The notes under the pieces are model-generated. The model saw nothing but the letters and a program-made list of their open reading frames with translations. It did not search any database and had not been told where the DNA came from. This document shows positions 19,541-63,557 of a DNA stretch of 64,000 nucleotides, one piece after another; position 1 is the stretch's first letter; every line of letters starts with the position of its first letter. Both the position numbers and the translations under genes were made by a program. Origin of the DNA: an uncultured Chloroflexia bacterium. GTDB taxonomy: Bacteria; Chloroflexota; Limnocylindria; Limnocylindrales; CSP1-4. The stretch is from assembly GCA_963707215.1 (NCBI GenBank), contig CAVPPB010000001.1, positions 32,001 through 96,000 of the forward strand, read 5' to 3'.

Positions 19541-19614
19541 TGGCTGCCCCTCGAGGATTCGAACCTCGGTTCACGGATCCAAAGTCCGCTGTCCTACCAC
19601 TAGACGAAGGGGCA
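19541..19614 (-). tRNA. tRNA-Gln(TTG)
   Basis: TGCCCCTTCGTCTAGTGGTAGGAC, GCGGA-CTTTGGA-TCCGT anticodon arm, GGTTCGAATCC and CCA. Confidence 0.96.
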
Positions 19615-37010: not shown

Positions 37011-38871
37011 TCAGGACTCCAGGCCCGCTTTGATCCGGGCCGCCAGGGCCGGCCCGATCCCGGGCACCGCGGCGATCTGCTCGACGGGCGCCTCTCGGAC
37101 CCGCTTCGCCGACCCGAAGACCCGGAGGAGCGCCTGACGTCGCTTCGGCCCCACCCCTGCGAGCTCATCGAACGCCGATCGCGTGGCCCGCTTCGAGCGG
37201 AGCGACCGGTGGTACGTGATGGCGAACCGATGGGCCTCGTCCCGGAGGCGCTGGACGAGGTACAAGGCCGGTGACGTCGCCTCGAGCAGGATCGGCTCGC
37301 TGCGCCCCGGCAGGAAGAGCTCCTCGCGCTCCTTGGCCAGGCCGACGACCGGCAGATCGCCGAGCCCGGCCTCCGCCAGGACCGCCGCGGCGGCCCGTAC
37401 CTGGCCGCGACCGCCGTCGATCACGACGAGATCCGGCATCGCCCAGCGGCGCTCTTCCTCGACCCCCTCCTGGCCCGCCGCGGTCTGACGGAAGCGCCGC
37501 CGAAGGATCTCGCGGTGGCTGGCGACGTCGTCGGGGCGATCCGCCACCGAGCGGACCCGGAAGCGTCGGTACTCCGAGCGTGCGGGGCCGTCCCTCCGCG
37601 AACACGACCATCGAGCCGACCGTCTCGCGACCCTGGAACGTGCTGATGTCGTAGCACTCGATCCGCATCGGTGGGCCGGGCAGGTCGAGTGCCGTCGCCA
37701 GGCCCTCGAGCGCCGCCAGCGTCCGCCCCTCGTCCGCAAGCCAGCGGGCGTGCTCGCGGGCGAGCACCTCGGTGGCGTTCCGCTGGGCCAGCTCGAGGAG
37801 CTGACGCTTCTCGCCGCGACGCGGTACCGCCAGGCCGACCGAGGCGCCGCGACGCTCGGCCAGGAACGCCTCGAGTTCGGCCGTCTCCGCCGGCAGGGTC
37901 GGCACGAGGATCCGCGGCGGCACCGACGTGGCCCGCGTGTAGTACTGGAGCAGGAACGAACCGAGGACCTCCTCGTCCGAGGCCTCGCGCACCGCGTCGA
38001 GAAGGAAGACGTCCCGGCCGACCATCGCCCCGGCCCGGACGACGAAGAGCTGGATCGCCGCCTGGTTGTCCTGGCGAGCAAGCCCGAGGAGGTCGAGCTC
38101 GGTCCGGGCGAAGGCGGCCATCTTCTGGGACTCCATCGTCCGCTCGATCGCCCGCACCTTGTCGCGCAGGGCGGCGGCCCGCTCGAACTCCAGGCGCTCC
38201 GCAGCCGTCTCCATCTCAGATCGCAGCGCAGCGGCGACCGCTTCCTGGCGGCCCTCCAGGAAGAGCTCGATCTGAGCGATGTCGTCCCGGTAGGCGGCCC
38301 GATCGACGGCCTCGATGCAGGGCCCCTGGCAGCGCTTGATGTGGTACAGCAGGCAAGGCCGCTGGAGCGCCCGCTCCCCCTCGACGATCCGGATCGCGCA
38401 CGTCCGGAATGGGAAGAGCCGTCGGATCAGGTTCATCGCCTCGTCGACCGACGAGGCCGATGCATACGGCCCGAAGTAGCGCGAGCCGTCCTGGATGAGC
38501 TTGCGGGTCCGCTCGACCCGCGGGAAATCCTCGGCCGCGGTGATCCGGATGTAGGGGTAGCTCTTGTCGTCCTTGAGGCGGACGTTGAAGCGGGGCTGGT
38601 AGCGCTTGATCAGGTTGGCCTCGAGCAGGAGGGCTTCGGAGACCGAGTCGGTGACGGTCCACTCGAGGTCCACCACGCGATCGATGGCGGAGCGGATCCG
38701 CTGGCTGTCACCCGGCCCCCGACCGGAGGAGCGCTGCCAGTAGCTGCGGACCCGGCTCCGGAGGCGCTGCGCCTTGCCGACGTACAGGACCGTGCCGCGA
38801 CCGTCGCGCATGAGATAGACGCCCGGCCGGTCGGGCAGTCGCTTGAGGGTGGCCTGGAGCTCCGGCGTCAC
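37011..38871 (-). CDS. uvrC: Excinuclease ABC subunit C (frameshift near 37580)
   Basis: GIY-YIG (PGVYLM...YVGKA), UVR domain and RIECYDIS. A second frame continues YRRFR, PDLVVIDGGRGQ, LRDEAHRFA and the HhH motifs. Confidence 0.95.
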
Positions 38872-38937
38872 GCGCCGATGCTAGGGCACCGTTCCGCCCT
38901 CCGTCGCGGACCGCCGGTTCGCGGGCCGTCGCATCCG

Positions 38938-42073: not shown

Positions 42074-42273
42074 GGCGACCTCCGCGTGGGCACGGGCACA
42101 GGACGTGCGGGACGCTGGGGCCTCGATTCTACCGCCCGAGTCTTGTCCGGAGGCCCTTCGGCCCGGTCAGCGCGCCGCGACCGAGCCGATGCGGTGCGCC
42201 GACGCACCGCCGAACGACCGACCCGGGTCGCGCGATAGGCCGCCGATGAGGCGACCTCGTCACGATCGACCGC

Positions 42274-44172
42274 ATGACCATCCCTGCCGGCCTGCCACCG
42301 ACGGTCCGGGACCGACTCGGGTCGCTGGCCCCGGATCAGCGGGTGGCGGCCATGGCGCCGCCCGGGCCGGTCCTCTGCGTCGCCCCGGCCGGATCGGGCA
42401 AGACGACGACCATCGTCGCCCGGGTCGCCTGGCGGGTCGCCAGTGGCGCGGACCCGGCGTCCATCACGGCGATCGCCTTCAACCGCCGCGCGGCGGTCGA
42501 GCTCGGTGAGCGTCTCGATGGGGCCCTGGCCCCGCTCGGCTGCGCAGCGGGAGCCGTCAGGGTGCGGACCTTCCATGCGCTGGGCCTCGAGATCCTCCGC
42601 GACGCGGGGCGCGACGTCCGCGTCGTCGATCGTGCCGCCATCCTCCGACGCCTCCGGCCGACGGCGACCGCCGACGAGCTCGCCCGGCTCGACACAGCGA
42701 TCTCACGGCTCAAGGTCGAGCTGGGCGTCACCCTGTCCGACGTGGTCACCGATGAGGACCCGGGCGACCTCGGCCGCGCCTACGTCGAGTACCAGGCCAC
42801 GCTGGATGCGCTCGAGGTCGTCGACTTCGACGACCTGATCACCGAGGCTGGGCGGGCGCTCCAGACCGCACCCGATCTGCTCCGGCGGTGGCACGCGCGC
42901 TGCGCCGACCTGCTCGTTGACGAGGTCCAGGACCTCGACCGCGCCCAGCTGGAGCTGGCGAGATCGCTCGCCGGGGACCGCGGGAACATGTTCCTCGTCG
43001 GCGACGACGACCAGTCGATCTACGGCTGGCGGCTGGCAGACGTCCGCCGGCTCCTCGAGGTCGCGGCCGCTACTCCGGGCCTGGTCCGGGTCGACCTCGA
43101 GGTGAACTACCGCTGTCCGGCGCCGGTCGTCGAGCGAGCGGCCCGCCTCGTCGAACGGAACCGGGAGCGACTCGCGAAGCGGATCCGGCCGCGGTCCGGT
43201 GCGGTCGGCTGGCTTGCGCTCGTCGCGGACGGTCGTCCGGATCCCCTCCGACTCGGCGCCGTCCTGAGACAGCTCCCGACGGCTGGCGGTACCCAGGCGT
43301 TCCTGGCCCGTACGAACCGCGAGCTGCTGCCGGCCATCGTGACGGCCGTCGCCATGGAGCGACCGTTTCGCTGCGAGATCGCCCTGCCGATCGAGGATGA
43401 CTGGGTCGACGAGGTCATCGCGGGCCTCCGGACCGAGGCGTCGGTCGGGCCCCTGCTCCCACGGATCGACCGCGTTGCCCACCGGCTCCTCCAGGAGGCC
43501 GGGGAGGGGCCGCTGGCCGAGCCGGCCGATGACGATCGCAAGTGCTCTGGCGACGACCTCGACGCTGCGCCGCCGCCGCTCCATTCCCGCGAGGCGATCG
43601 GCCGATCGATCCTGGGCTGGGCCGCGGGCCTCTCTGACGTCGACGCACTCGCCGGATCGGTCGCCCGGATGCGGGCGCGACTCACCGCTCTCCGCCGCCC
43701 GGATGCGGCCCTCGTCCTCTCGACGGCCCATGCCACGAAGGGCCTCGAGTTCGACGACGTCATCGTGATCATGGACGAGGGTCGGTTTCCGTCGCCCCGC
43801 GCGATCGCCGGCTCGCTCGAGCCGGCTCGGGCGCTGGAGGAGGAGCGGCGTCTCGCCTACGTGGCGTGGACCCGCGCCCGGCGGTCGCTCACCCTCGTGT
43901 ACGACCCCTTGAGCCCGTCCTCGTTCCTGGCCGAGGCCTTCACCCCCGGCGAGCTCGGGATCCCGGTCGACGAACTCGCCCGAGGGCCGCCCGACCGCTC
44001 CCGCGGGTGCCCCACGGCGTCCCGGATACGTCACGGAACCGACTCGGGCGCGTCACCGATGAGCCATCGCCCGGTCATCCGAGGTCGTCACCGTGGGGCC
44101 CATGCCCGGCCGGACCGCCGGGACGGCGCAGGGCCCGCCCGAGCTGGCCTATCCAAGGAGGGATCGCGATGA
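42274..44172 (+). CDS. Compact UvrD/Rep-family SF1 helicase (last ~60 aa uncertain)
   Basis: APAGSGKTT, AFNRRAA, TFHALG, LLVDEVQD, VGDDDQSIYGWR, LEVNYR, LARTN, STAHATKGLEFD and EEERRLAYVAWTRAR motifs. Confidence 0.9.
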   Translation: MTIPAGLPPTVRDRLGSLAPDQRVAAMAPPGPVLCVAPAGSGKTTTIVARVAWRVASGADPASITAIAFNRRAAVELGERLDGALAPLGCAAGAVRVRTFHALGLEILRDAGRDVRVVDRAAILRRLRPTATADELARLDTAISRLKVELGVTLSDVVTDEDPGDLGRAYVEYQATLDALEVVDFDDLITEAGRALQTAPDLLRRWHARCADLLVDEVQDLDRAQLELARSLAGDRGNMFLVGDDDQSIYGWRLADVRRLLEVAAATPGLVRVDLEVNYRCPAPVVERAARLVERNRERLAKRIRPRSGAVGWLALVADGRPDPLRLGAVLRQLPTAGGTQAFLARTNRELLPAIVTAVAMERPFRCEIALPIEDDWVDEVIAGLRTEASVGPLLPRIDRVAHRLLQEAGEGPLAEPADDDRKCSGDDLDAAPPPLHSREAIGRSILGWAAGLSDVDALAGSVARMRARLTALRRPDAALVLSTAHATKGLEFDDVIVIMDEGRFPSPRAIAGSLEPARALEEERRLAYVAWTRARRSLTLVYDPLSPSSFLAEAFTPGELGIPVDELARGPPDRSRGCPTASRIRHGTDSGASPMSHRPVIRGRHRGAHARPDRRDGAGPARAGLSKEGSR

Positions 44173-46630: not shown

Positions 46631-49696
<3,066 letters not shown>

Positions 49697-49724
49697 GAAC
49701 GCATTCTACGCCGCCGACGGCCTA

Positions 49725-50638: not shown

Positions 50639-52999
<2,361 letters not shown>

Positions 53000-53030
53000 G
53001 GCCGGAGGATAGCACCGGCGCACGACCGGG

Positions 53031-53046
53031 TCGAACACCTGTTCGA
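53031..53046. promoter_or_regulatory. LexA/SOS box (perfect palindrome) between divergent uvrB and tadE
   Basis: TCGAAC-ACCT-GTTCGA matches the actinobacterial/Gram-positive GAAC-N4-GTTC consensus. It lies at the -35 position of the extended -10 TGcTATCCT (53006-53014, minus). Confidence 0.85.
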
Positions 53047-53175
53047 TGGCATGAGGACCGGACCGGTGACCGGATGGCGGGTCCAGGGTGGGACGACCGG
53101 GTCATACCCGACCCGTCGCGGCGTGTCGAGGATGGGCGGGACAGGGAAGCCAGCCCGGAGGTCGGTCGCGCCCGC

Positions 53176-53733
53176 ATGCGCCTCGTCGGTCGTCCATCGT
53201 CGCCCAGCGCTCGCGGTGCGGCCACGCACCGCGAAGGGGCCCGCGGTCAGAGCCTCGTCGAGTTCGCCCTGATCGTCACGCCGCTCTTCCTGCTGCTCCT
53301 CGCGGTCGTCCAGTTCGGCTTCATCTTCAACGCCTACGTCACGCTGACCAACGCGGCCCGGGAGGCCGCGAGGACGGGCACGATCGTCGTCTACGACCGG
53401 AACCTCTCGAAGGCCGCCAACGACCTGGTCCGCCACGAGGCCGTCCGCGACACGCTCGTCGGCTCGATGAACCTGCTGGGGACGAGCAGCCCACAGCTCG
53501 TCAACGGGTCGACCTGGACCCAGAGCGGGTCGACCTACACGAACGGCGACATCGTCATCTCCTACGAGCTCCCGGGCGGCATGCTCGAGAGCGACCCGCG
53601 GACCGGCCAGCGGCTGACCGTTCGGGCGACCTACCACCTCGACCTGATCGTCCCACTCATCTCGAACCTGCTGCCGAAGGACCTCGGCGGGCGCCTGGCG
53701 CTCCCGGCCGAGGTCACGATGGTCATCAACTGA
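53176..53733 (+). CDS. tadE: TadE-like minor pilin
   Basis: Prepilin motif RGQSLVEFALIVTPLFLLLLAVVQFG and LTNAAREAAR. Confidence 0.88.
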   Translation: MRLVGRPSSPSARGAATHREGARGQSLVEFALIVTPLFLLLLAVVQFGFIFNAYVTLTNAAREAARTGTIVVYDRNLSKAANDLVRHEAVRDTLVGSMNLLGTSSPQLVNGSTWTQSGSTYTNGDIVISYELPGGMLESDPRTGQRLTVRATYHLDLIVPLISNLLPKDLGGRLALPAEVTMVIN

Positions 53734-55650
53734 TGGCTACGCGCGGCAGCGGTCCGCGGGGTCAGGTCCTCGTCATCTTCGCCTTCGCCCTGGTGGGGCT
53801 GTTCGCGGCAGCCGGCATCGCCTTCGACATCGGGCGCTTCTACGCCGAGCAGCGCTTCCTCCAGAACGCCGCCGACGCGGCGGCGCTGGCGGCTGCCAAC
53901 GCGCTGATCCGCGGCGAGACCGTGACCTGCGCCGATGCGGAGGCACGGGCCGTCCTGGCCCGCAACTTCCGACGAGCCCGAACGCCAGCAGCCCGGCCCT
54001 GCCGCCGACCAGTCCCGTCTATCGTCCGGCAATGCGGGCGTCGCGACCGAGCTCGTCAACGGCATCCTCATCACCGGGTGCGGAGGTGCGGGTCGCCGTG
54101 CAGAGCACGTCCCCTACACCTTCGGGCGGATCGTCGGTCTCGTGGACAACACGATGATGGCCCGGGCCCGAACGCGAACCGACGGCGACCTGCTGCCGAT
54201 CGCGGTCCGCCGCTTCGTCAACATGCCGGGTCCCAACTCGGGCGCGTCTGCCCCCTGTCCCGCGAACCCGAACCACTTCGTCGACTTCTTCGCCACCGCG
54301 AACACCGCCTGCCTCGGGACGGATACCGATGGTGCGCTGCGAACGACGCCATCGCCTGGTTCGCCGTTCGACTCCACGACCCCGGGCAGCGACCCGACCA
54401 GCCACGGTCCGGTCATGACGATCCTGGGCCAGGGCGCTCAGCCGAGCAACGGCGCCGACTTCCGGGGGTTCGTCGCCCTCGACATCCGCAACTTCTCGAC
54501 GAGCACCTCCCAGCTCTACTACAACGGCGTCACCTCCGGTACCGGCCGCAACCAGCTCAAGGACATGGAGTCGGGCTGGATCCGGACCGGCTACCCGGGC
54601 CCGGCCTTCCCGCCGGCCATGACCCCACCAGACCCCAACGACCAGGTAGCCGTCATCAGCGGCAACGACACCGGCATCGCGATCGATGCCATGGCCGACC
54701 GCTACGTGCCGGGCGACGAGATCCTCGTCGCCGTCTACCCGGGCGTGGTCATGCAGATCCCCGACTTCTCGATCAGCCCGCCGGCAACGATCGACCTGCC
54801 CACCACCGGCACGGTCGGCGATGCCGGGACGTTCCGAGTGTCCCGCAACCAGGCCTTCAGCGGCACGGTCGCCCTCAGCACCGTCGCCGACCTCCTCGAC
54901 CCCGCCCATCCGATGGTCACCGGAGCGATGGACCCGGTGACGCCGATCGACTACGACCCGTCGCTCGTCACCCCGTCGATCGGGTCAGGGACGCCGGTGG
55001 GAATGGAAGACGTCACGACCACGGGAGCGACACCCGGCATCTACACCCTCTGGATCCGGGGCGAGGCCGGCAGCCCCTACCTGACCGTCAAGTTCACGCC
55101 CTTCGCCGTCAACGTCGGCGGGGTCGAGCGCGACTTCACGATCACCTCCTCGGTCGGCGAGCTGGAGGCGGCGAACGCCGGCGACGTCGTCACGACGACG
55201 CTGACCCTCAAGAAGTCCGGCTCCGGCAGCACCTTCGGCGGAACGGTGACGATGAGCCTGGACGGTCCGCTGCCGACCGGCCTCGGCACGGTCAGCTTCG
55301 GCGCGACCTCGGTGACGCCGACCGGCGGGACCGGCACCTCGACGACCCTGACCATCAACACGGGAACCGTGGCCCCGGGCGTGTACGACCTCGTCGTCCG
55401 GGCGACCGGCCTCAACGGTGACGCGACACCGCGCAAGGTCACCCACCTCCTGCCGCTGCGGCTGCGGGTCGGGGCGACCGGCTCCAGCGGCGGCAAGCCG
55501 TACGTCGACATCACCGGCTTCGCCGTCATGCGCGTCGCCTACGTCGACGCCAACCGCGTCGACGCCTACGCCATCAGCGGCGTCTACGCCGACCAGAACG
55601 ACCCAGCCCTCCGCCGCGGTCAGGTGGCCCGGCTGGTGCCCTGGAGCTAG
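53733..55650 (+). CDS. TadG-like tip pilin/adhesin with inserted Ig-like repeats (frameshifts at about 53930-54100)
   Basis: RGQVLVIFAFALVGLFAAAGIAFDIG...LQNAADAAALAAA (Tad N-terminus), continuing in the 53935-55650 frame with LLPIAV, ITGFAVMRV and VARLV. ATG overlaps the tadE stop. Confidence 0.8.
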
Positions 55651-55708
55651 CCGGTCGGGCACGGCATCACCCGCCCGGCGGACCCGGGCGACAACGGGAG
55701 GCACCTCC

Positions 55709-56602
55709 ATGGAGCTCGAGTACAAGGACGAGAGTCGACGCGGTCGGTTCATCGTCGTCATCGGCCTGATCCTCGCCGTCATCGCCGGCGGGGCGGCCTT
55801 CTACCTCGTCAGCCAGGCCCAGCAGCAGGCCTCGGCGACGGCGGTCACGACCCCCGCCGTCGTGGCCATCCGGGCGATCCCGGCCCGCAAGCCGATCGAG
55901 GCCGCCGACGTCGTCGTTCGCGACGTCCCGATCGACCCGACGAACGCGTCGGGGATCGTGGCCGACCCCAACCTGGTCGTGGGCCGCCTCCCGGTCGTCA
56001 CGATCCTCGAGGGCCAGCTCGTCACGACGAACCTGCTGGCGTCCTCCGACGAGGGCGGCCAGTTCTCGATCCTGGGCCCGGAGGAAGCCATCGCCGTCGA
56101 CTCGATCGCCTGGCGCGCGGTGTCGATCACGGCGCCCGACGAGCGGGCCGTCGGCGGCCTGCTGGAGCCCGGCCAGACCGTCGACGTCTTCGTGACGGCC
56201 ACGGTCAACGTCGCGGAGGACCTCATCGAGGAGGGCAAGTTCTACACCGACAAGTCCACCAAGGTGACGTACCAGGACATGCTCATCCTGGCCAAGTCGG
56301 GCCAGTTCTACGTCCTGAAGGCCCCGCTCGACATCGCGGAGGAGATCTCGCACCTCCAGGCCAGCGGCACGGCGGCCTTCAGCCTGGTCCTCCGACCCGA
56401 CGTGGATACTCGCCAGATCGACGTCGCCGAGTACGGCAACACGACGAACCGGATCATCACCAAGTACGGGCTGCCGGTCCCGGAGACGTACCCGGCCGGC
56501 AACGGTCCCGTCCGGACGCCGCCGCCCCTCGCCTCACCTACCCCGTTCCCGTCTCCCATTCCGACGGTCGAGCCGTCGGTCGCCCCTTCGCCGGTCCCGT
56601 AG
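55709..56602 (+). CDS. cpaB: Flp pilus assembly protein CpaB/RcpC
   Basis: GGAGG RBS, N-terminal TM, SAF-like VVAIRAIPARKPI, RAVSI and VGGLLEPGQTVDVFV, LVLRP. Confidence 0.85.
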   Translation: MELEYKDESRRGRFIVVIGLILAVIAGGAAFYLVSQAQQQASATAVTTPAVVAIRAIPARKPIEAADVVVRDVPIDPTNASGIVADPNLVVGRLPVVTILEGQLVTTNLLASSDEGGQFSILGPEEAIAVDSIAWRAVSITAPDERAVGGLLEPGQTVDVFVTATVNVAEDLIEEGKFYTDKSTKVTYQDMLILAKSGQFYVLKAPLDIAEEISHLQASGTAAFSLVLRPDVDTRQIDVAEYGNTTNRIITKYGLPVPETYPAGNGPVRTPPPLASPTPFPSPIPTVEPSVAPSPVP

Positions 56603-56734: not shown

Positions 56735-57380
56735 TCATGTCCGGTCGTCGGGCCGCCGGGCGAGCGCCTGCTCGAGCGCCTCGTGGACCCGCAGCCGGGC
56801 CGCCTCGGCATCGCCACCCGTGTCGATCACCCGGGTCGCGGCCGGCTCGAGCCGGGCCGCCAGGTCGCCCTGGGCCCGGATCCGCCGCTCGGCGTCATCG
56901 GCGGGCATCCCCCTGGTCAGGAGGCGATCCCGCTGCTCCCCTGGCGGACAGGTCACCAGCCAGACCTCGTCGCACTGCTCGGCCAGGCCGCCCTCGACGA
57001 GCTTGATCGCCTCGACCACGACGACCGCCGCGCCGGCCTCGTCAGCTCCTCGGAGGGCGTCGAGGATCACCGGACGGACCGCCGGGTGGACGATCGCTTC
57101 GAGGCGGGCCAGCGAGCCCGGGTCCTCGAAGACCCGGGCGGCCAGCGCCGCCCGGTCGAGAGCGCCGTCAGCGGCGACCACCGCCGTGCCGAAGGTCTCG
57201 ACCACGGCCCGGAACGCCGGGCGCGCCCGGTTCCACGACCTCGCGGGCGATCCGATCGGCGTCGACCACGACCACACCGCGCTCGGCGAGCCAACCCGCG
57301 ACCGTAGACTTGCCGCAGCCGATCGGCCCGGTGAGCCCGATGCGGAGTGCTCGGCGCGCGGTCCCGGCTTGGGCGATCAC
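56735..57380 (-). CDS. coaE: Dephospho-CoA kinase (frameshift near 57225)
   Basis: [14 protein letters not shown] and [13 protein letters not shown], then [16 protein letters not shown] and RRIRAQ. Confidence 0.93.
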
Positions 57381-59497
57381 GGCGCCTGGTCCTCGAGCTC
57401 GAGCCACGCCTCCTCGGCCGCCTCGAGGGCGACGTCGACGTCCGCAAGCTCGCTGGTGACCCGGCGGAGCTCGACGAAGTTGGCCTGGACGACGGGGTCG
57501 CCGAGGGCCAGCTCGAGGTGGTTCTTGCGAAGGCCGAGCCGGGTCAACTCGGCCTCGACGGCCGCCGAGCGTCGCCGGTAGGCATCCTTCGAGAGCTTCG
57601 GCCGCCGGGACCGGGAGCTGGGTCGGGCCGGCGCCCCTGTCGCGGCCGCGCCCGGCACGCTGGACCGGGCGCCCGACGATGGTCGCCTGGTCGCCGGCGG
57701 CGGCGCTGGGGCCCGATCGGCCCGGCCCGGACGCTGGGATGGCCGGAGACGCGCGGCCTCACGCTCGACCGCCACGGCCGGCGTCCACCCGTCGGCCACC
57801 GCTGCCCGCCACTCCCGATAGGTGCCGTCGAACGGCACGACGAGCTCGTCGGCAACCACCCAGAGGCGCTCGCAGACCGTGTCGAGGAGCCGCCGGTCAT
57901 GGCTGACCAGGAGGACGGTCGCGGGGACTTCGCGAAGGAACGTCTCGATGGCCTCCCGGGCCGGGATGTCGAGATGGTTCGTCGGCTCGTCGAGGAGCAG
58001 GAGGTTGGCCGGCAGGATCCCGAGCAGGGCCATCTCGAGGCGGGAGCGTTCCCCGCCGGACAGCGAGCGGACCTCCTTGAAGGCTTCGTCGCCGCGGAAC
58101 AGGAAGCGGGCCAGGTAGGCGCGGGCCTCTCCCGGAGTGATCGGGAGGGCGTCCAGGATCGCCTCGAGCACGGTGGCTCCGGGGATCGCGGCGCCGCGAA
58201 GCTGAGCCAGGTAGCCGAGCTGTACCTGGTGGCCGAAGACGAGGCTGCCGTCGAGCGGCGGCAGCTCCCCGGCGATGGTTCGCAGGAGCGTCGTCTTGCC
58301 GGCGCCGTTGGGACCTACGATGCCGATCCGTTCGCCCCGGGCCGCGGCGATGAACGGGGCCCTGGCGATGGCGGTCGGCCCGGTCCGCAGTGGTGCCCCC
58401 TCGCCGGCGCCGGTCACGGCCGCGTCGCCGGCCAGGGCTGCGTCATCGCCGACCTCGACCGTCCGGGGCGCCTCCCGGCCGGGCAGGTAGCCGACGACGA
58501 GGTCCTCCAAGCGGACGACCATCTCGCCCGAACGGACCGGAGCGCCGCCGGCCAGCGCCTGACTCGGCAGGGCCAGCCTGCGCCCGCGACGCGGGGCCTC
58601 GCGGCGCTCGCCCTCGAGCCGCTCGAGGCGGGCCTCGTGCTCATGCATCTTCGAGTACTTGCGGTGGCTCCGATAGCGCTGGACGAGCTCGCGCTCGCGC
58701 TCGATCGCGGCAGCCTGGGTCCCGGCCTCCTTCGCCGCCCGCGCGTCGCGCTCGTCGCGCTGTCGGCGGAAGGCCGAGTAGTCGCCGCGGAAGACGGTCA
58801 GCCGGCGGTCGCGAAGCTCCCAGATCCGGGTCGCCGTGGCGTCGAGGAAGGCCCGGTCATGGGAGGCGACCAGCAGCGAGCCGCTCCGCCGACGGAGATG
58901 CTCCTCGAGCCACTCGAGCGCGGCCAGGTCGAGGTGGTTCGTCGGCTCGTCGAGGAGGAGCAGGTCCGGGTCGGCGACGACCAGGCGGGCGAGGGCCGCC
59001 CTGGTCTGCTGGCCGCCCGAGAGGGTCGTCGGGGGTCGCTCCCACGTGGAACGAGGGAAGCCAAGGCCCGAGAGCGTGGCGTCGACGCGGACGTCGAGAG
59101 CGTAGCCGCCGAGGGCGTCGAAGCGGCCCCGGAGCTCCGCGTACGTCGCCTCGCCGGCCTGGCCGGACCGCTCCAGGTCGGCGAGCTCCAGCTCGAGCCG
59201 CTCGAGATCCGCCGCCCCATGCCGGACCGCTTGGCGCAGCGTCCCGGCTGCCATGAACCGCTCGTCGAGGTGGGCCTCCTGGGCCAACAGGCCAAGGGTG
59301 AGGCCACGCTTGCGGCCCACCGAGCCCCGGTCCGGCTCCTCGATGCCGACCGCGATGCGGAGCAGGGTCGTCTTGCCTGCCCCGTTCGGCCCGACGAGGC
59401 CGATCCGGTCGCCGAGCGCGATCGCGGCATCGATCCCGTCGAGGATGACGAAGTCGCCGATCTCACGGACGACGCCCTCGAGCCGGAGGAGCGACAT
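57377..59497 (-). CDS. ABC-F family ATPase (Uup/YheS-like) with C-terminal coiled coil
   Basis: Two NBDs (GPNGAGKTT twice, [20 protein letters not shown] twice), GDYS interdomain linker, no TM segments, and C-terminal [12 protein letters not shown]. Confidence 0.93.
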
Positions 59498-60576
59498 CAG
59501 GCACCCCCCTGGGTCGAACGGCGGGCCTCGACCGGGGCCGTTCCCGCTCTCGCGGCGGCCCGGCGCGCGGCCGCCGCTCGTCGGGTCGCCGCCGCTCGCT
59601 CGGCCCCGACCGTACCGAGCGCCCCGGACCCGTCGAGCTCGACCCAGCGGCGTCCCCGGCGCCCGGGAGGCCGGCCGGGTCGGGGCGTCATCCCGGCCAG
59701 GATCGTCGCGGCGCCGACCCGCTCCACAGCCGGCAGCCGCTGGCACCACGAGCAGAAATGGGTCGCCCGACCGCCGACGACGATCCGCCGGATCGGCCGG
59801 CCGCATCGCTCGCAGGGCTGTCCCGTCCGCTGGTAGACGAGGAGCCGCTCCTGCATCTCCCCGTCGCCATCGGGCGCCGTGTAGTCGTCGATCGAGGAGC
59901 CGCGCCGTTCGACCGCCTCGGTCAGGATCCGCAGGAGCTCCACATAGAGCCGCCGTTCGTCGGCCGGCCGGAGCGACCGGGCGGAGCGGAGCGGATGGAG
60001 GCGACTCGCCCAGAGCGCCTCGTCGGCGTAGATGTTGCCCACCCCGGCCAGGAACGCCTGGTCGGTGATGAGCGGCTTGAGCCGGGTCCGCCGCCCCCGG
60101 ATCCGCCGCCGGAAGGCCCGCAGGTCGAAGCCGGGCTCGAGCGGCTCGGGCCCCAGGCCGGCGAAGGGGTCGTCGTCGGACGCATCGCGGGCATCCCCGG
60201 TCGCCTCGTCACGCCGGTACAGGCCGATCCGGCCGAACTTGCGGATGTCCCGGAAGCGGACCTCGCGCCCGTCGGCGAGCACCAGCGTCACCCGGACGTG
60301 CGGGTCGCCGGGGGCCGACGACGGCACCACGAAGAGCTGGCCGGTCATCTTGAGGTGGATGGTGAGCAGGGCGCCGCCGGAGAGCTCGGCGACGATGAGC
60401 TTGGCCCGGCGTCCGACCGCCTCGACGCGGCGGCCCCGGACCCCGGCGGCGAAGGCGTCCGGGTCGCCGCCGCGGATCGTCCGCGGCCAGGCCACCCGGG
60501 CATCGGCGATCGTCGCCCCGAGGACATGCCGGCGGAGGTCGCCGGCGACCGTCTCGACCTCGGGCAGCTCAGGCAT
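59497..60576 (-). CDS. mutM: Formamidopyrimidine-DNA glycosylase
   Basis: MPELPEVET, HLKMTG, DIRKFG, AGVGNIYADE and CERCG...FCSWCQ zinc finger, with a basic C-terminal extension. Confidence 0.96.
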   Translation of the reverse strand: MPELPEVETVAGDLRRHVLGATIADARVAWPRTIRGGDPDAFAAGVRGRRVEAVGRRAKLIVAELSGGALLTIHLKMTGQLFVVPSSAPGDPHVRVTLVLADGREVRFRDIRKFGRIGLYRRDEATGDARDASDDDPFAGLGPEPLEPGFDLRAFRRRIRGRRTRLKPLITDQAFLAGVGNIYADEALWASRLHPLRSARSLRPADERRLYVELLRILTEAVERRGSSIDDYTAPDGDGEMQERLLVYQRTGQPCERCGRPIRRIVVGGRATHFCSWCQRLPAVERVGAATILAGMTPRPGRPPGRRGRRWVELDGSGALGTVGAERAAATRRAAAARRAAARAGTAPVEARRSTQGGA

Positions 60577-60588
60577 CGCTCGCGGCGG

Positions 60589-63488
60589 TCAGACGCCGAC
60601 GCCGCCGGGCGCCTCATCGGCCTCGACACGCACCGCGTCGGCCCGGGTCAGCGGCGTCATCGACTCCCAGTCGGGTCCCACCTTGACGTCGACGGTCAGC
60701 GGCACGTCGAGCGGGACGGCGCCCTCCATCGTCTCGCGGACCGCCGCCGCCAGGCGCTCGACCTCGGCCTCGGGCACCTCGAACAGGAGCTCGTCGTGGA
60801 CCTGCAGGAGCATCCGGGCAGGTGACCCGTCCGCCCGGAGCCGGTCGGCGACCCGGATCATCGCGATCTTCATGACGTCGGCCGCCGTGCCCTGGATGGG
60901 CATGTTGATGGCCATCCGCTCCCCTGCCCCGCGCAGGGCGGGATTGCGCGCCGTCAGCTCGGGGATGGAGCGACGGCGCCCCAGCAGGGTGGTGACGTGG
61001 CCCTGCTGCTTGGCCGTCTCCTTGATGTGGAGCATGTAGTAGCTGATGCCGGAGTAGGTCGAGAAGTACGAGTTGATGAAGTCCTGGGCCTCCTGGCGGC
61101 TGATGCCGGCCCGGGTCGAGAGTCCGAAGTCGCTCATCCCGTAGGCGATCCCGAAGTTGACCATCTTCGCCATCGAGCGCTCGTCGGCGGTCACCTCGGC
61201 CGGGTCCTTGTGGAGGACGCGTGCGGCGGTCTCGCGGTGGATGTCGGCCTCTCGGGCGAAGGCCTCGCGAAGGTGCTCGTCGCCGGAGACGTGGGCGAGG
61301 ATCCGCAGCTCGATCTGGGAGTAGTCGGCGGCCAGCAGCACGAGGCCACTCCCCCCGGCCACGAAGGCGCGACGGATCCGCCGTCCCAGAGGGGTCCGGA
61401 TCGGGATGTTCTGGAGGTTCGGATCGGACGACGAGAGCCGGCCCGTGGCGGCGACGGCCTGGTGGAACGTCGTGTGCAGGCGACCGTCGTCGGCGATGAG
61501 CTCGGGCAGCGCCTCCACGTAGGTCGAGCGCAGCTTCGTGTAGACCCGCCACTCCAGCAGCCGCTCGACCATCGGGTGGGCGGCCCGGAGCTCCTCGAGG
61601 ACGGTCGCGTCGGTCGAGAAGCCGGTCTTGGTCCGCTTGCCCTTGGGCAGGTCGAGCTCGTAGAAGAGGACCTGCTCGAGCTGCTTCGGGCTGCCGAGGT
61701 TGAACTCGTGGCCGACGGCGTCGTAGATCTCGCGCTCCAGCCGGTCGATCTCGGTGCCGAACTCGCGATCGAGCGCCGCCAGCGCCTCGAGGTCGAGGGC
61801 GACGCCGGTGGCCTCCATCCGGGCGAGGACCGGGATGAGCGGCAGCTCGACCTCGGCGAAGAGCCGGTCGAGCGCGTCGGCCGCCAGGGCCTCGGCCAGG
61901 ACCGGACGGACCGCGAGCACGGCCAGGGCCTCGATCCCGGCCCGCAGGCCCGGGGAGAGGTCGGCTGGCGGCGGCAGCATCACGTCGAGCCGCTCCGCCA
62001 CGACGTCGGCGATCGCCTGGCTGCGCAAGGCCGCGTTGAGGAGGTAGGCCGCGACCTGGGTGTCGAAGGCGACCGACAGCGGCGACCCGGCCGGATCGTC
62101 GGCATAGCCGGCGGTCAGCAGCGGCTTGACCTCGTGGCCGACGAGGCCCGGACGCGCCGTGTCGAGGGCCCGTCGGGCCGCGGACACCGCCTCGGGACCC
62201 TCGGCGACGACCACCCGTCCATCGTGGCCCGCCATGGCAAGGGCGAGCGGCTCGCCCTTGCGCGGTCGCGGGTCGGAGCCGACGAAGGCCACGCCGACGT
62301 CGGGCTGCGCCCGCAGCCACGACGTCAGGTCGTCGATCGCCTCCGGAGCGAGGCGCTCGATCCGGGCCGGGTCGACGAGGGCCGCCCGAAGGGCGCCGAC
62401 CGGGTCGCCGGGGACCACCTCGAGGGGCGACCGCGCCGGAACCACCCTCCGCTCCGGTCCCGACCGGGCCGACCGCGTCGAAGTCGAGGCTCAGCTGGAG
62501 GCCGGCGCCCTGGGCGAGGAGCGAGGGACGTCCGGCCGCCGGGCGCCCGGGCGGCCCGGGTCGCCCCGCTGGCATCCCGGAGCGCCGCGGCCGTGTCCTC
62601 CGGCCGCTCGCCCTCGACCGGCGGGAGCCGCTCGATGAGGGTCCGGAACTCGTACTCGCGGAACAGGCGGATCACGGCCTCGCGGTCGTAGCGCCCGATG
62701 CGGGCCGCCTCGAGGTCGAGCTCGACGGGGACGTCGTGGACGAGGCGCATGAGCTCACGGCTCTCGAGGACCCGCTCCCGGGCCTCCCCCAGCTTCGGGC
62801 GCAGCTTCTCGGGGACGACCTCGTCGAGGTGCTCGTAGAGCGCATCGAGCGTGGCCCAGGTCCGGATCAAGGTCGAGGCGGTCTTCTCGCCTACCCCCGC
62901 GACCCCCGGGATGTTGTCGGTCGAGTCGCCCTTCAGGGCCTTGTAGTCGACCATCTGGTCCGGGCGGAGGCCGTAGCGTTCGTCGATCCGGGCGAGGTCG
63001 TAGACGACCGTGTTGGCCACCCCGCCCCGGAGCGAGACCACGAGCCGGGTCCGCTCGCTGACGAGCTGGAGCATGTCCAGGTCGCCGGTGACGACGGTCG
63101 TCGCCAGGTCGCGCGCCTCGGCCTGGTCCACCAGGCTGGCGATGACGTCGTCGGCCTCGTAGCCCTCGGCCTCGTAGACCGGGATCGCGAGCGCGGCCAC
63201 GACCTCGCGGACCTTGGGGAACTGGTCGCGCAGGTCGTCGGGCATCCGCTGGCGGGTCGCCTTGTACTCCGCGTACCGCTCGTGCCGGAAGGTCGGCTTG
63301 CCGAGGTCGAAGGCGATGGCGATGTGGCTCGGGGCGACGTCCTGGATGGCCCGCAGGACGATGTTCGTGAACCCGAAGACGGCGTTGACGAGCTCGCCCT
63401 TCGACGTCGTCAGGGGCGTGTCGATCAGGGCGTAGTAGCCGCGGTAGATGAGCCCGTTGCCGTCGAGCAGCATCAGGCGGTCGGTCAC
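60589..63488 (-). CDS. polA: DNA polymerase I (frameshifts at about 62440-62530)
   Basis: 5'-exonuclease motifs LLDGNGL, YKATR, GYEADD and GDSTDNIPGV. Polymerase motifs TGRLSSSDPNLQNIP, ADYSQIELR, KMVNFGIAYG and LQVHDEL. Confidence 0.96.
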
Positions 63489-63557
63489 GGGATCCTCGGC
63501 GGGCGGATGCTGACGCCGCCAGTGTACCCGCGGGTGCCGGCCCCACCGGGTCCGGGG

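Follow-up and report, generated by a model that had tools for sequence, protein, structure and literature searches.

The palindrome TCGAACACCTGTTCGA at 53031..53046 of the window, i.e., the whole 64,000-nucleotide stretch of DNA that was analysed, is very probably a LexA operator. We put at roughly 85% the probability that this operator represses uvrB and that the tad genes on its other side are a separate module, running on a promoter of its own and inserted between coaE and uvrB. The first-pass annotation had raised the possibility of a damage-inducible pilus whose genes share the LexA region with uvrB. Comparison with relatives ties the box to uvrB alone, and a damage-inducible pilus is therefore unlikely.

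Genes were identified by Pfam scans of six-frame open reading frames. uvrB occupies 50863..52999 on the minus strand and is divergent from tadE, a TadG-like gene and cpaB, with 176 nt between its GTG start at 52999 and the tadE ATG at 53176. This GTG begins an MP(D/G)FQL N-terminus that is kept in relatives, and the frame pieces of uvrB match the Pfam families UvrB, UVR, UvrB_inter, ResIII and Helicase_C. Domains of UvrB, UvrA, UvrC, UvrD-like, MutM and PolA proteins were all detected; the identities first given to the tad, uvr, mutM and polA genes are thus backed by Pfam/NCBIfam matches, and the palindrome is indeed present in the short divergent gap. The surrounding repair cluster retains the gene order polA-mutM-ABCF-coaE ... 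uvrB ... uvrA in the relatives examined, and within it the box is found at uvrB only. The tad genes are separated from mutM and polA by an ABC-F ATPase gene and by the boundary gene coaE (56738..57407, minus strand), two frame pieces of which match PF01121. In tad-less relatives, coaE lies directly upstream of uvrB.

The coding sequences of five genes (uvrB, uvrC, tadG, coaE and polA) are broken up among different reading frames. Against the intact ortholog of a genome of the same genus (G001), uvrB carries 15 one-base and 2 two-base indels, and the frame splits in uvrB, tadG and the other genes are most likely assembly errors. Because of the indels, spacings at the locus are accurate to about 1-2 nt. 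In a search of sequencing runs, no RNA run with this sequence was listed, and DNA runs matched at most 0.17 of the sampled words. The host belongs to an uncultured soil and sediment lineage of Candidatus Limnocylindria (Chloroflexota), and the relatives referred to below as the family sample are 39 genomes of the same family.

When one mismatch was allowed, TCGAACACCTGTTCGA was the sole match in the window, and shuffled windows held a mean of 0.15 matches, with at least one match in 15 of 100 shuffles. It is also the single perfect copy of the 16-mer in the 3,257,968-bp genome, for which arithmetic from a GC content of 72% gives an expectation of about 0.05. The bare core GAAC-N4-GTTC occurs at 21 genomic sites where composition predicts about 21, and as such the core alone is uninformative.

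A predicted -10 hexamer, TATCCT, lies at 53006..53011 on the minus strand, 6 nt before the start codon, and 33 of the 39 family genomes likewise have TANNNT 6-9 nt ahead of the uvrB start codon, from which we predict that the uvrB mRNA is leaderless across the family. The core of the box at 53031-53046 ends 21 nt upstream of the predicted -10, i.e., the operator overlaps the -35 region, and 27/39 family genomes have a perfect core in the corresponding place, over the -35 and with its end 18-23 nt upstream of their predicted -10. The initial judgement that the box suits the uvrB -35 better than tadE is borne out by this spacing. A scan of 52800-53400 for sigma-70 consensus promoters and terminators found nothing. 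Since the box at uvrB was present in 27/39 genomes inside the family and in none of the 28 other Chloroflexota genomes sampled, it can be regarded, among sampled Chloroflexota, as a family-level trait. On this arrangement, uvrB would be transcribed as a leaderless message from TATCCT, and LexA seated on the operator would cover the -35 region and consequently shut out RNA polymerase until cleaved in response to DNA damage.

The remainder of a LexA system is encoded elsewhere in the genome. The lexA gene (contig C2, 26028-26720) encodes the DNA-binding domain PF01726 and the S24 peptidase domain PF00717, and its promoter carries the box TCGAACGCCTGTTCGG between TTGACA and TATGAT. The dnaE2-like, imuA/imuB-like and Lhr-like helicase genes are likewise immediately preceded by boxes of the form GAAC-N4-GTTC. 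The Gram-positive operator type originally assigned to the palindrome was correct. No LexA box was found within 760 nt upstream of recA. Together these sites provide a first sketch of the Limnocylindria LexA regulon, comprising lexA, uvrB, imuA/imuB, dnaE2 and the Lhr-like helicase gene, and apparently without recA.

On the other side of the palindrome, whose 3' end is 129 nt before the tadE ATG, the three genes on the plus strand would make up an accessory module of a Tad/Flp pilus, consisting of a minor pilin, a large pseudopilin and a CpaB paralog. tadE (53176..53733) encodes a 185-aa TadE-like pseudopilin (PF07811, E 9.2e-16) whose translated N-terminus, RGQSLVEFAL, is prepilin-type; its orthologs at 12 loci share 50-91% identity. 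A ribosome-binding site, GGAGG, can be read from the sequence at 53157..53161 on the plus strand, with GGAGG at the corresponding place in G001, G002, G011 and G018. The start of the TadG-like gene (53733..55650; PF13400, the Tad/TadG N-terminus, E 4.2e-10) overlaps the tadE stop in TGATG. Its product is a large pseudopilin of about 640 aa when intact, again with a prepilin-type N-terminus (RGQVLVIFAF), and comparison by eye with the family consensus revealed at least four frame changes between 53950 and 54110. This protein has 1138 homologs, some of them labelled 'TadG-related'. For a predicted model of the G001 ortholog (pLDDT 80.7), the best PDB matches, at E 1.9e-8 and weaker and with a TMq of only 0.11-0.21, were tandem Ig-like domains from intimin, invasin and cadherins; on our reading these matches span the C-terminal beta-strand part of the model, and the large pseudopilin with its Ig-like domains may be a tip adhesin. 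The last gene of the module, cpaB (55709..56602), encodes an RcpC/CpaB paralog, scoring 72.9 bits against NCBIfam TIGR03177 (cut-off 71) and 28.3 bits against PF16976 (RcpC/CpaB), just below the cut-off of 28.8.

The remaining tad and com genes, for which a search had been proposed, were found elsewhere in the genome. A locus on contig C4 holds flp-like genes (best 27.1 bits, below the Pfam cut-off of 32.2), a second cpaB, a receiver-ParA protein (tadZ), T2SSE (tadA) and T2SSF (tadBC), and a prepilin peptidase (Peptidase_A24) is encoded on contig C3, i.e., the rest of the Tad machinery lies outside the three-gene module. A separate cluster holds five further tadE genes, and the genome also encodes ComEC and a ComFC-like gene. 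The flp-cpaB-tadZ-tadA-tadBC locus and the five-tadE cluster contain no perfect box, nor do the surroundings of the prepilin peptidase and comEC genes, and one-mismatch sites around these Tad and comEC loci occur at background density. A literature search on pili in Limnocylindria found nothing.

The tad module is predicted to run from its own conserved promoter-like element. A composite of the form GGGAC-N8-CATWCC-N17-20-NANNNT spans 53090-53133 of the window, combining an upstream block, GGGAC-N8-CATACC (53090..53108, plus strand), with a -10-like hexamer, GAGGAT (53128..53133, plus strand), which fits NANNNT at the conserved spacing; in G019 the equivalent is GAGACT, 7 nt before the tadE ATG. 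Of 29 intergenic regions, 15 contain the strict composite pattern, whereas shuffles gave a mean of 0.075 and never more than 2. In relatives the element precedes the first tad gene, be that gene tadE or cpaB, and the block is unique within its own genome, other tad loci having no copy. Within the predicted tad promoter the block falls at roughly -50 to -32, which suggests an activator acting there. Several other accounts of this region were set aside. A covarying hairpin in the spacer between CATWCC and the -10 was dropped, as the spacers are GC-rich and the hairpins drawn by eye were weak in several genomes; the spacings and letters of the block do not fit sigma-54, ECF-type or PafBC-type motifs; and an Rfam scan of 52900-53300 with E up to 10, for a known RNA family in the tad leader, gave only a meaningless miRNA match of 17.5 bits where 82 are needed.

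The leading alternative is that LexA at 53031-53046 represses both divergent promoters, making the Tad module, and thus adhesion or DNA uptake, damage-induced. Several features speak for it: both starts fall within one 176-nt region, ComEC and a ComFC-like gene are encoded in the genome, Flp pili are required for transformation in Micrococcus luteus (PMC4322843), and a LexA site at a Tad pilus promoter of Dinoroseobacter shibae has been predicted in silico (PMC6473078). Moreover, the synteny comparison that had been called for showed the adjacency to be conserved, the tad module being divergent from uvrB in 28/39 family genomes and in 1/3 genomes from a second family within the class. The arrangement is kept across genera whose TadG proteins share 47-83% identity, and could reflect functional coupling.

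Against a shared operator stands the independent distribution of box and module. Of the 10 genomes without tad genes at uvrB, 9 retain the box; this class was defined by tblastn as having no tad homolog within 1.5 kb upstream of uvrB (with coaE as the neighbour in most), a criterion that may overlook very divergent tad genes, e.g., where G027 and G028 have gaps of 1 kb. Conversely, it is absent from 10 of the 28 tad-bearing genomes and present in 18 (19/29 counting G001), and one genome of the second family lacks the box although its tadE-tadG pair is divergent from uvrB. The UvrB tree has low resolution, 20 of its 35 inner branches being open, and can show no more than the lack of a visible association: on it, the box and tad traits each change at least 10 times, and no joint change of the two was found among independent pairs. 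Geometry argues in the same direction. In the window, the element begins 43 nt after the box, and from the centre of the box it is about 100 nt downstream to the predicted transcription start of tadE. Among box-bearing relatives, the distance from box core to element, obtained by subtraction, ranges from 19 to 91 nt with no fixed phase. Overall, separations reach several hundred nt; the element start lies 62-325 nt from the uvrB start, the uvrB-tad gap is 557 nt in G025, and in G017 a tatA gene sits between uvrB and the element. We assessed membership of the SOS regulon by whether the box is conserved together with the tad operon in relatives and whether it overlaps the operon's own predicted promoter; neither was found. 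Furthermore, the pilin, ATPase and platform genes carry no box. We therefore regard a shared operator, and with it the damage-inducible pilus first proposed, as unlikely: the module has its own predicted promoter, and both the flp/tadZABC locus and the other tadE cluster are boxless.

In compact regions, a more indirect effect can be envisaged, whereby LexA at the uvrB -35 would also hinder an activator at the block 19-45 nt away (the distance from core to tad block is 19 nt in G007 and 45 nt in this window), leaving the tad module damage-induced. We consider this improbable. If true, the module would supply Chloroflexota with their first LexA-controlled pilus component, and the UV-induced pili of Sulfolobales with a bacterial counterpart.

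More doubtful still is a response of the tad module to damage or stress that bypasses LexA and runs through a factor reading GGGAC-N8-CATWCC, with the adjacency to uvrB reflecting that link. The block does occupy an activator-like position and the place of the module beside uvrB is conserved, and recA likewise has no LexA box within the 760 nt upstream, from which it follows that some damage genes here may use another regulator. However, the block is connected to no known damage regulator, its absence from the rest of the genome means that no regulon ties it to repair genes, and inherited gene order is a simpler account of the adjacency. The least credible alternative is that TCGAACACCTGTTCGA is a functionless chance match: although the genomic frequency of the 12-nt core does not exceed that expected from composition, the full 16-mer is unique, the perfect core recurs at the same promoter position in relatives with divergent flanks, and the same motif is found at the promoter of lexA and ahead of genes for SOS mutagenesis.

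The preferred reading is therefore that LexA represses uvrB and that the tad module is a neighbour regulated independently, from a promoter that would lie about 100 nt from the operator centre. The place of the module between coaE and uvrB would go back to an insertion in an ancestor of these Limnocylindria, after which some lines rearranged or lost it. Seen in this way the locus is fairly ordinary, a predicted SOS-regulated uvrB beside an ordinary Tad accessory operon, and it illustrates that co-regulation should not be concluded from a LexA box in a shared divergent region until relatives have been checked. The conserved promoter block before the tad module could lead to the true regulator of the module.

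Comparison with known systems places the two halves of the locus in different contexts. In Bacillus subtilis, uvrBA/dinA is LexA-repressed through the 'Cheo box' CGAAC-N4-GTTCG. The present genome resembles such Gram-positive, LexA-repressed uvrB genes in having a GAAC-N4-GTTC palindrome in the uvrB promoter and a box at its own lexA, and differs from B. subtilis in that uvrB is predicted to be leaderless, with the operator over the -35. Within the Chloroflexota, the LexA of Dehalococcoides ethenogenes reportedly recognises the Gram-positive box. The operator type predicted here from sequence is the same, whereas the class is different and recA is boxless over the upstream interval given above. 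The lexA-yneA pair of B. subtilis is also divergent, with SOS boxes overlapping both promoters; here too a predicted LexA site lies in a short divergent intergenic region, but it overlaps the predicted uvrB promoter only, the predicted start of tadE being about 100 nt away. The Ups pili of Sulfolobales are UV-induced archaeal type IV pili that serve DNA exchange, with no LexA involved. With the pilus first proposed for the present locus they share the idea of a damage-induced type IV filament for DNA exchange.

Among monoderm Tad/Flp loci, those of M. luteus, of which two are needed for transformation (PMC4322843), share TadE and TadG-type pseudopilins and CpaB with the present genome, in which flp, tadZ, tadA, tadB/C and a prepilin peptidase gene are encoded away from the module. 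Unlike them, the accessory module described here comprises three genes separate from the core locus, among them a CpaB paralog and a gene for a 640-aa TadG-like protein with Ig-like domains, and a role in DNA uptake is unsupported here. A parallel for a LexA motif near tad genes is that of D. shibae (PMC6473078), likewise predicted in silico only; there the LexA motif is alphaproteobacterial and the setting a CtrA/quorum-sensing network.

The palindrome between the divergent uvrB and tad genes is confirmed as TCGAACACCTGTTCGA at positions 53031-53046 of the window, the sole perfect copy in the source genome (3.26 Mb, 72% GC, five contigs, with the window at C1:32001-96000), and the reading of it as a putative LexA operator, proposed in the first-pass annotation, is very probably right, as indicated by the box of lexA itself and by boxes at SOS genes. 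lexA occurs once in this genome, encodes DNA-binding and S24 peptidase domains, and has the promoter TTGACA-TCGAACGCCTGTTCGG-TATGAT, in which the box lies between textbook -35 and -10 hexamers. The source genome contains 21 GAAC-N4-GTTC cores, several directly 5' of typical SOS genes, and the genes preceded by a core include a dnaE2-like polymerase, an imuA-like/imuB-like pair, a class II ribonucleotide reductase and an Lhr-type DEAD-box helicase. Boxes of the form TAGAAC-N4-GTTCTA stand 5' of these genes at C3:1107142, 1110497, 880292 and 262753 (loci L009, L008 and L007). By our own arithmetic 21 cores is the number that base composition predicts, therefore the argument for LexA rests on the position of the cores and not on their count. 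No core was found within 760 nt upstream of recA (C3:51857-52642), allowing one mismatch, and a small lysine-rich frame, identified by eye, precedes this gene. Two LexA-type boxes 30 nt apart, TCGAACACCCGTTCGG and TCGAACAGGTGTTCTA, are also present at C2:31163 and 31193 (L005 2001-2046), directly 3' of a DinB-type polymerase frame and 5' of an FTCD_C cyclodeaminase-folD pair. The only other core in the window, GGATTCGAACCTCGGTTC at 19561-19572, resembles a tRNA T-arm by eye.

A search of the Limnocylindria family of the source genome with an intact UvrB N-terminus matched 40 of 41 genomes, and the 1.5 kb upstream of uvrB was read in 39. A TANNNT hexamer is located 6-9 nt 5' of the uvrB start codon in 33 of the 39 (in the region 53000-53011 in the window); such a spacing is that of a leaderless mRNA, thus uvrB appears, by prediction, to be leaderless across the family. 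The perfect core ends 18-23 nt upstream of the hexamer in 27/39 genomes (21 nt in the window), which would place the box over the predicted uvrB -35 and bears out the earlier caveat that the box fits this position. In all 28 Chloroflexota genomes sampled outside the family (one unpublished genome excluded, one locus too short), the 200 nt upstream of uvrB lacked a perfect core.

On the other side of the box, tadE (53176-53733, + strand; PF07811, E 9.2e-16), a TadG-like gene (53733-55650, +; N-terminus PF13400, E 4.2e-10) and cpaB (55709-56602, +; NCBIfam TIGR03177, 72.9 bits, cut-off 71) look like one operon, because the tadE stop and tadG start overlap (TGATG) and cpaB begins 58 nt after tadG with a GGGAGG site. 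A composite element, shared among relatives (loci L028-L039 and L055-L091), lies 5' of the first tad gene, whichever gene this is, and consists of GGGAC, 7-9 nt, CATWCC, 17-20 nt, and a hexamer whose second base is A and sixth base is T. In the window these parts occupy 53090-53094, 53103-53108 and 53128-53133; GGAGG comes next, at 53157, and the ATG is at 53176. The final hexamer takes the forms GAGACT, GACACT, GAGGAT, GATGCT and TAGGAT. Of 29 intergenic regions with tad genes, 15 contain the strict pattern, where shuffles average 0.075 (maximum 2), and 20 a looser one, where they average 0.475; four genomes (G003, G014, G017, G034) have a variant with GGTCCTAC further upstream. The last hexamer is read as a -10, since in one relative (G019) only 7 nt separate it from the tadE start, an arrangement like that of the uvrB hexamer. 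The conserved block would then sit at about -50 to -32 of the predicted tad promoter, the position of an activator touching RNA polymerase, and the composite element is possibly an activator-dependent promoter. It was not found elsewhere in the source genome, and no Rfam family matched it.

The distance between the uvrB start codon and the beginning of the element ranges from 62 to 325 nt; in box-bearing genomes, element and box core are 19 to 91 nt apart (by subtraction), with no constant phase. The uvrB-tadE gap reaches 557 nt in G025, and in G017 a tatA gene (L035 2094-2318; PF02416, E 1.8e-16) stands between uvrB and the element, on the uvrB strand. Across the family, this varying distance and the intervening tatA make it untenable to place the predicted tad promoter at the LexA box.

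TadG orthologs were recovered from 13 of the 36 other family members searched; the sister family, which has small genomes, yielded none in 24. All 12 loci examined kept the order uvrB, divergent tadE-tadG-cpaB, then convergent coaE-ABCF-mutM-polA, with uvrB visible in 11 and the contig ending before it in the twelfth. Across from the uvrB box, tadE-tadG-cpaB is present in 16 genomes (including the window, its congener G001, G018 and G030), while cpaB comes first, divergent from uvrB, in nine (L056, L057, L062, L067, L075, L080, L085, L087, L090), in two of which (G007, G032) it is directly followed by coaE and seemingly alone; on these grounds the module seems to have been rearranged or reduced within the family. 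Four genomes have diverged or unresolved tadE forms across from uvrB, one an unrecognised neighbour, and ten no tad homolog within 1.5 kb of uvrB, with coaE ~85-165 nt from uvrB in eight of these ten.

The box is present in 9/10 tad-less versus 18/28 tad-bearing genomes (19/29 counting G001, where it is situated on another contig end). On a UvrB tree of low resolution, with 20 of its 35 inner branches open, box and tad module each change at least 10 times, with no joint change in independent pairs. Three genomes represent the second family of this class: two have coaE adjoining uvrB, and in one tadE-tadG diverges from uvrB and no box is present. Because the box is kept without tad, tad is found without the box and no joint change is seen on the tree, the two are, judged from these comparisons, separate traits that happen to occur together in the source genome. 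The damage-inducible pilus put forward earlier is thus left unsupported, both by the distribution of the box and by the module having an element of its own.

Further tad and com-type genes are encoded outside the window. The core tad locus, on C4 (22000-32500, L053), is preceded by a LuxR-type two-component pair (response regulator and kinase). It comprises flp-like genes, two or three in number, together with a second cpaB, genes for a receiver-ParA (TadZ-like) protein and a T2SSE ATPase, the latter frameshifted, and T2SSF genes; DUF192, a ComFC-like phosphoribosyltransferase and hpf come after these. The receiver domain of the TadZ-like protein is at its N-terminus. At C3:1426800-1432700 (L054), an OmpR-type two-component pair stands ahead of a second pseudopilin cluster, made up of five TadE-like genes (one of them a fusion with two PKD domains) and then a TadG-like gene and a gene for an HD-domain protein; prepilin peptidase and ComEC are encoded elsewhere in the genome. 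No perfect LexA core was found at the C4 locus, the C3 pseudopilin cluster, prepilin peptidase or ComEC, and one-mismatch sites there are at genome background (0.26 per kb), so that even LexA control of the window's three genes would not be predicted to extend to the filament, the motor or the platform.

The TadG-like protein belongs to a large family, with 1138 proteins at E <= 1e-5 among 8000 candidates scored, several of them, from Limnocylindrales MAGs, named 'pilus assembly protein TadG-related protein'. The intact G001 ortholog, modelled with an alignment of 45 rows (mean pLDDT 80.7, pTM 0.58), is predicted to have a long helix at its N-terminus, then a mixed domain and C-terminal domains rich in beta-strands. 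Compared with the PDB, the model scored best against tandem Ig-like domains, namely those of intimin, invasin, protocadherins and an S-layer protein, with E from 1.9e-8 but TMq of no more than 0.11-0.21; this would fit a pilus-borne adhesin, on weak evidence.

The genes around the tad module, identified with Pfam in every long open frame between 35.5 kb and the window end, run secD, uvrC (37014-38880, -), a 5'-nucleotidase, a UvrD-like helicase (42250-44169, +), a PEMT-type methyltransferase, GNAT/DUF6941, uvrA (46634-49705, -), a luciferase-like oxidoreductase and uvrB (50863-52999, -), and beyond the tad genes coaE (56738-57407, -), an ABC-F ATPase (57380-59806, -), mutM (59500-60588, -) and polA (60592-63557, -). 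In the proposed repair cluster, the order polA-mutM-ABCF-coaE and uvrB ... uvrA is maintained in the relatives examined; Actinobacteria have a similar order, polA...coaE-uvrB...uvrA. As this order is kept and uvrB is the sole gene with a box in the window, we see an inherited gene order and not a damage-response island. Within 37014-63557, uvrB, uvrC, tadG, coaE and polA are split across reading frames, and the window's uvrB differs from the intact G001 uvrB by 15 one-base and two two-base indels, which also fall outside homopolymer runs. Essential genes are also broken, so we read the indels as assembly errors and not decay; the assembly seems unpolished, which explains the 84.8% completeness estimate, and the spacings given for the window may be in error by a base or two.

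In the literature searched, none of the papers joining LexA, Tad pili and the SOS response deals with Chloroflexota, judging by titles. For other bacteria, that literature includes one LexA site predicted in silico at a Tad promoter, in an alphaproteobacterium (PMC6473078), and the transformation of Micrococcus luteus, reported to depend on Flp pili (PMC4322843).
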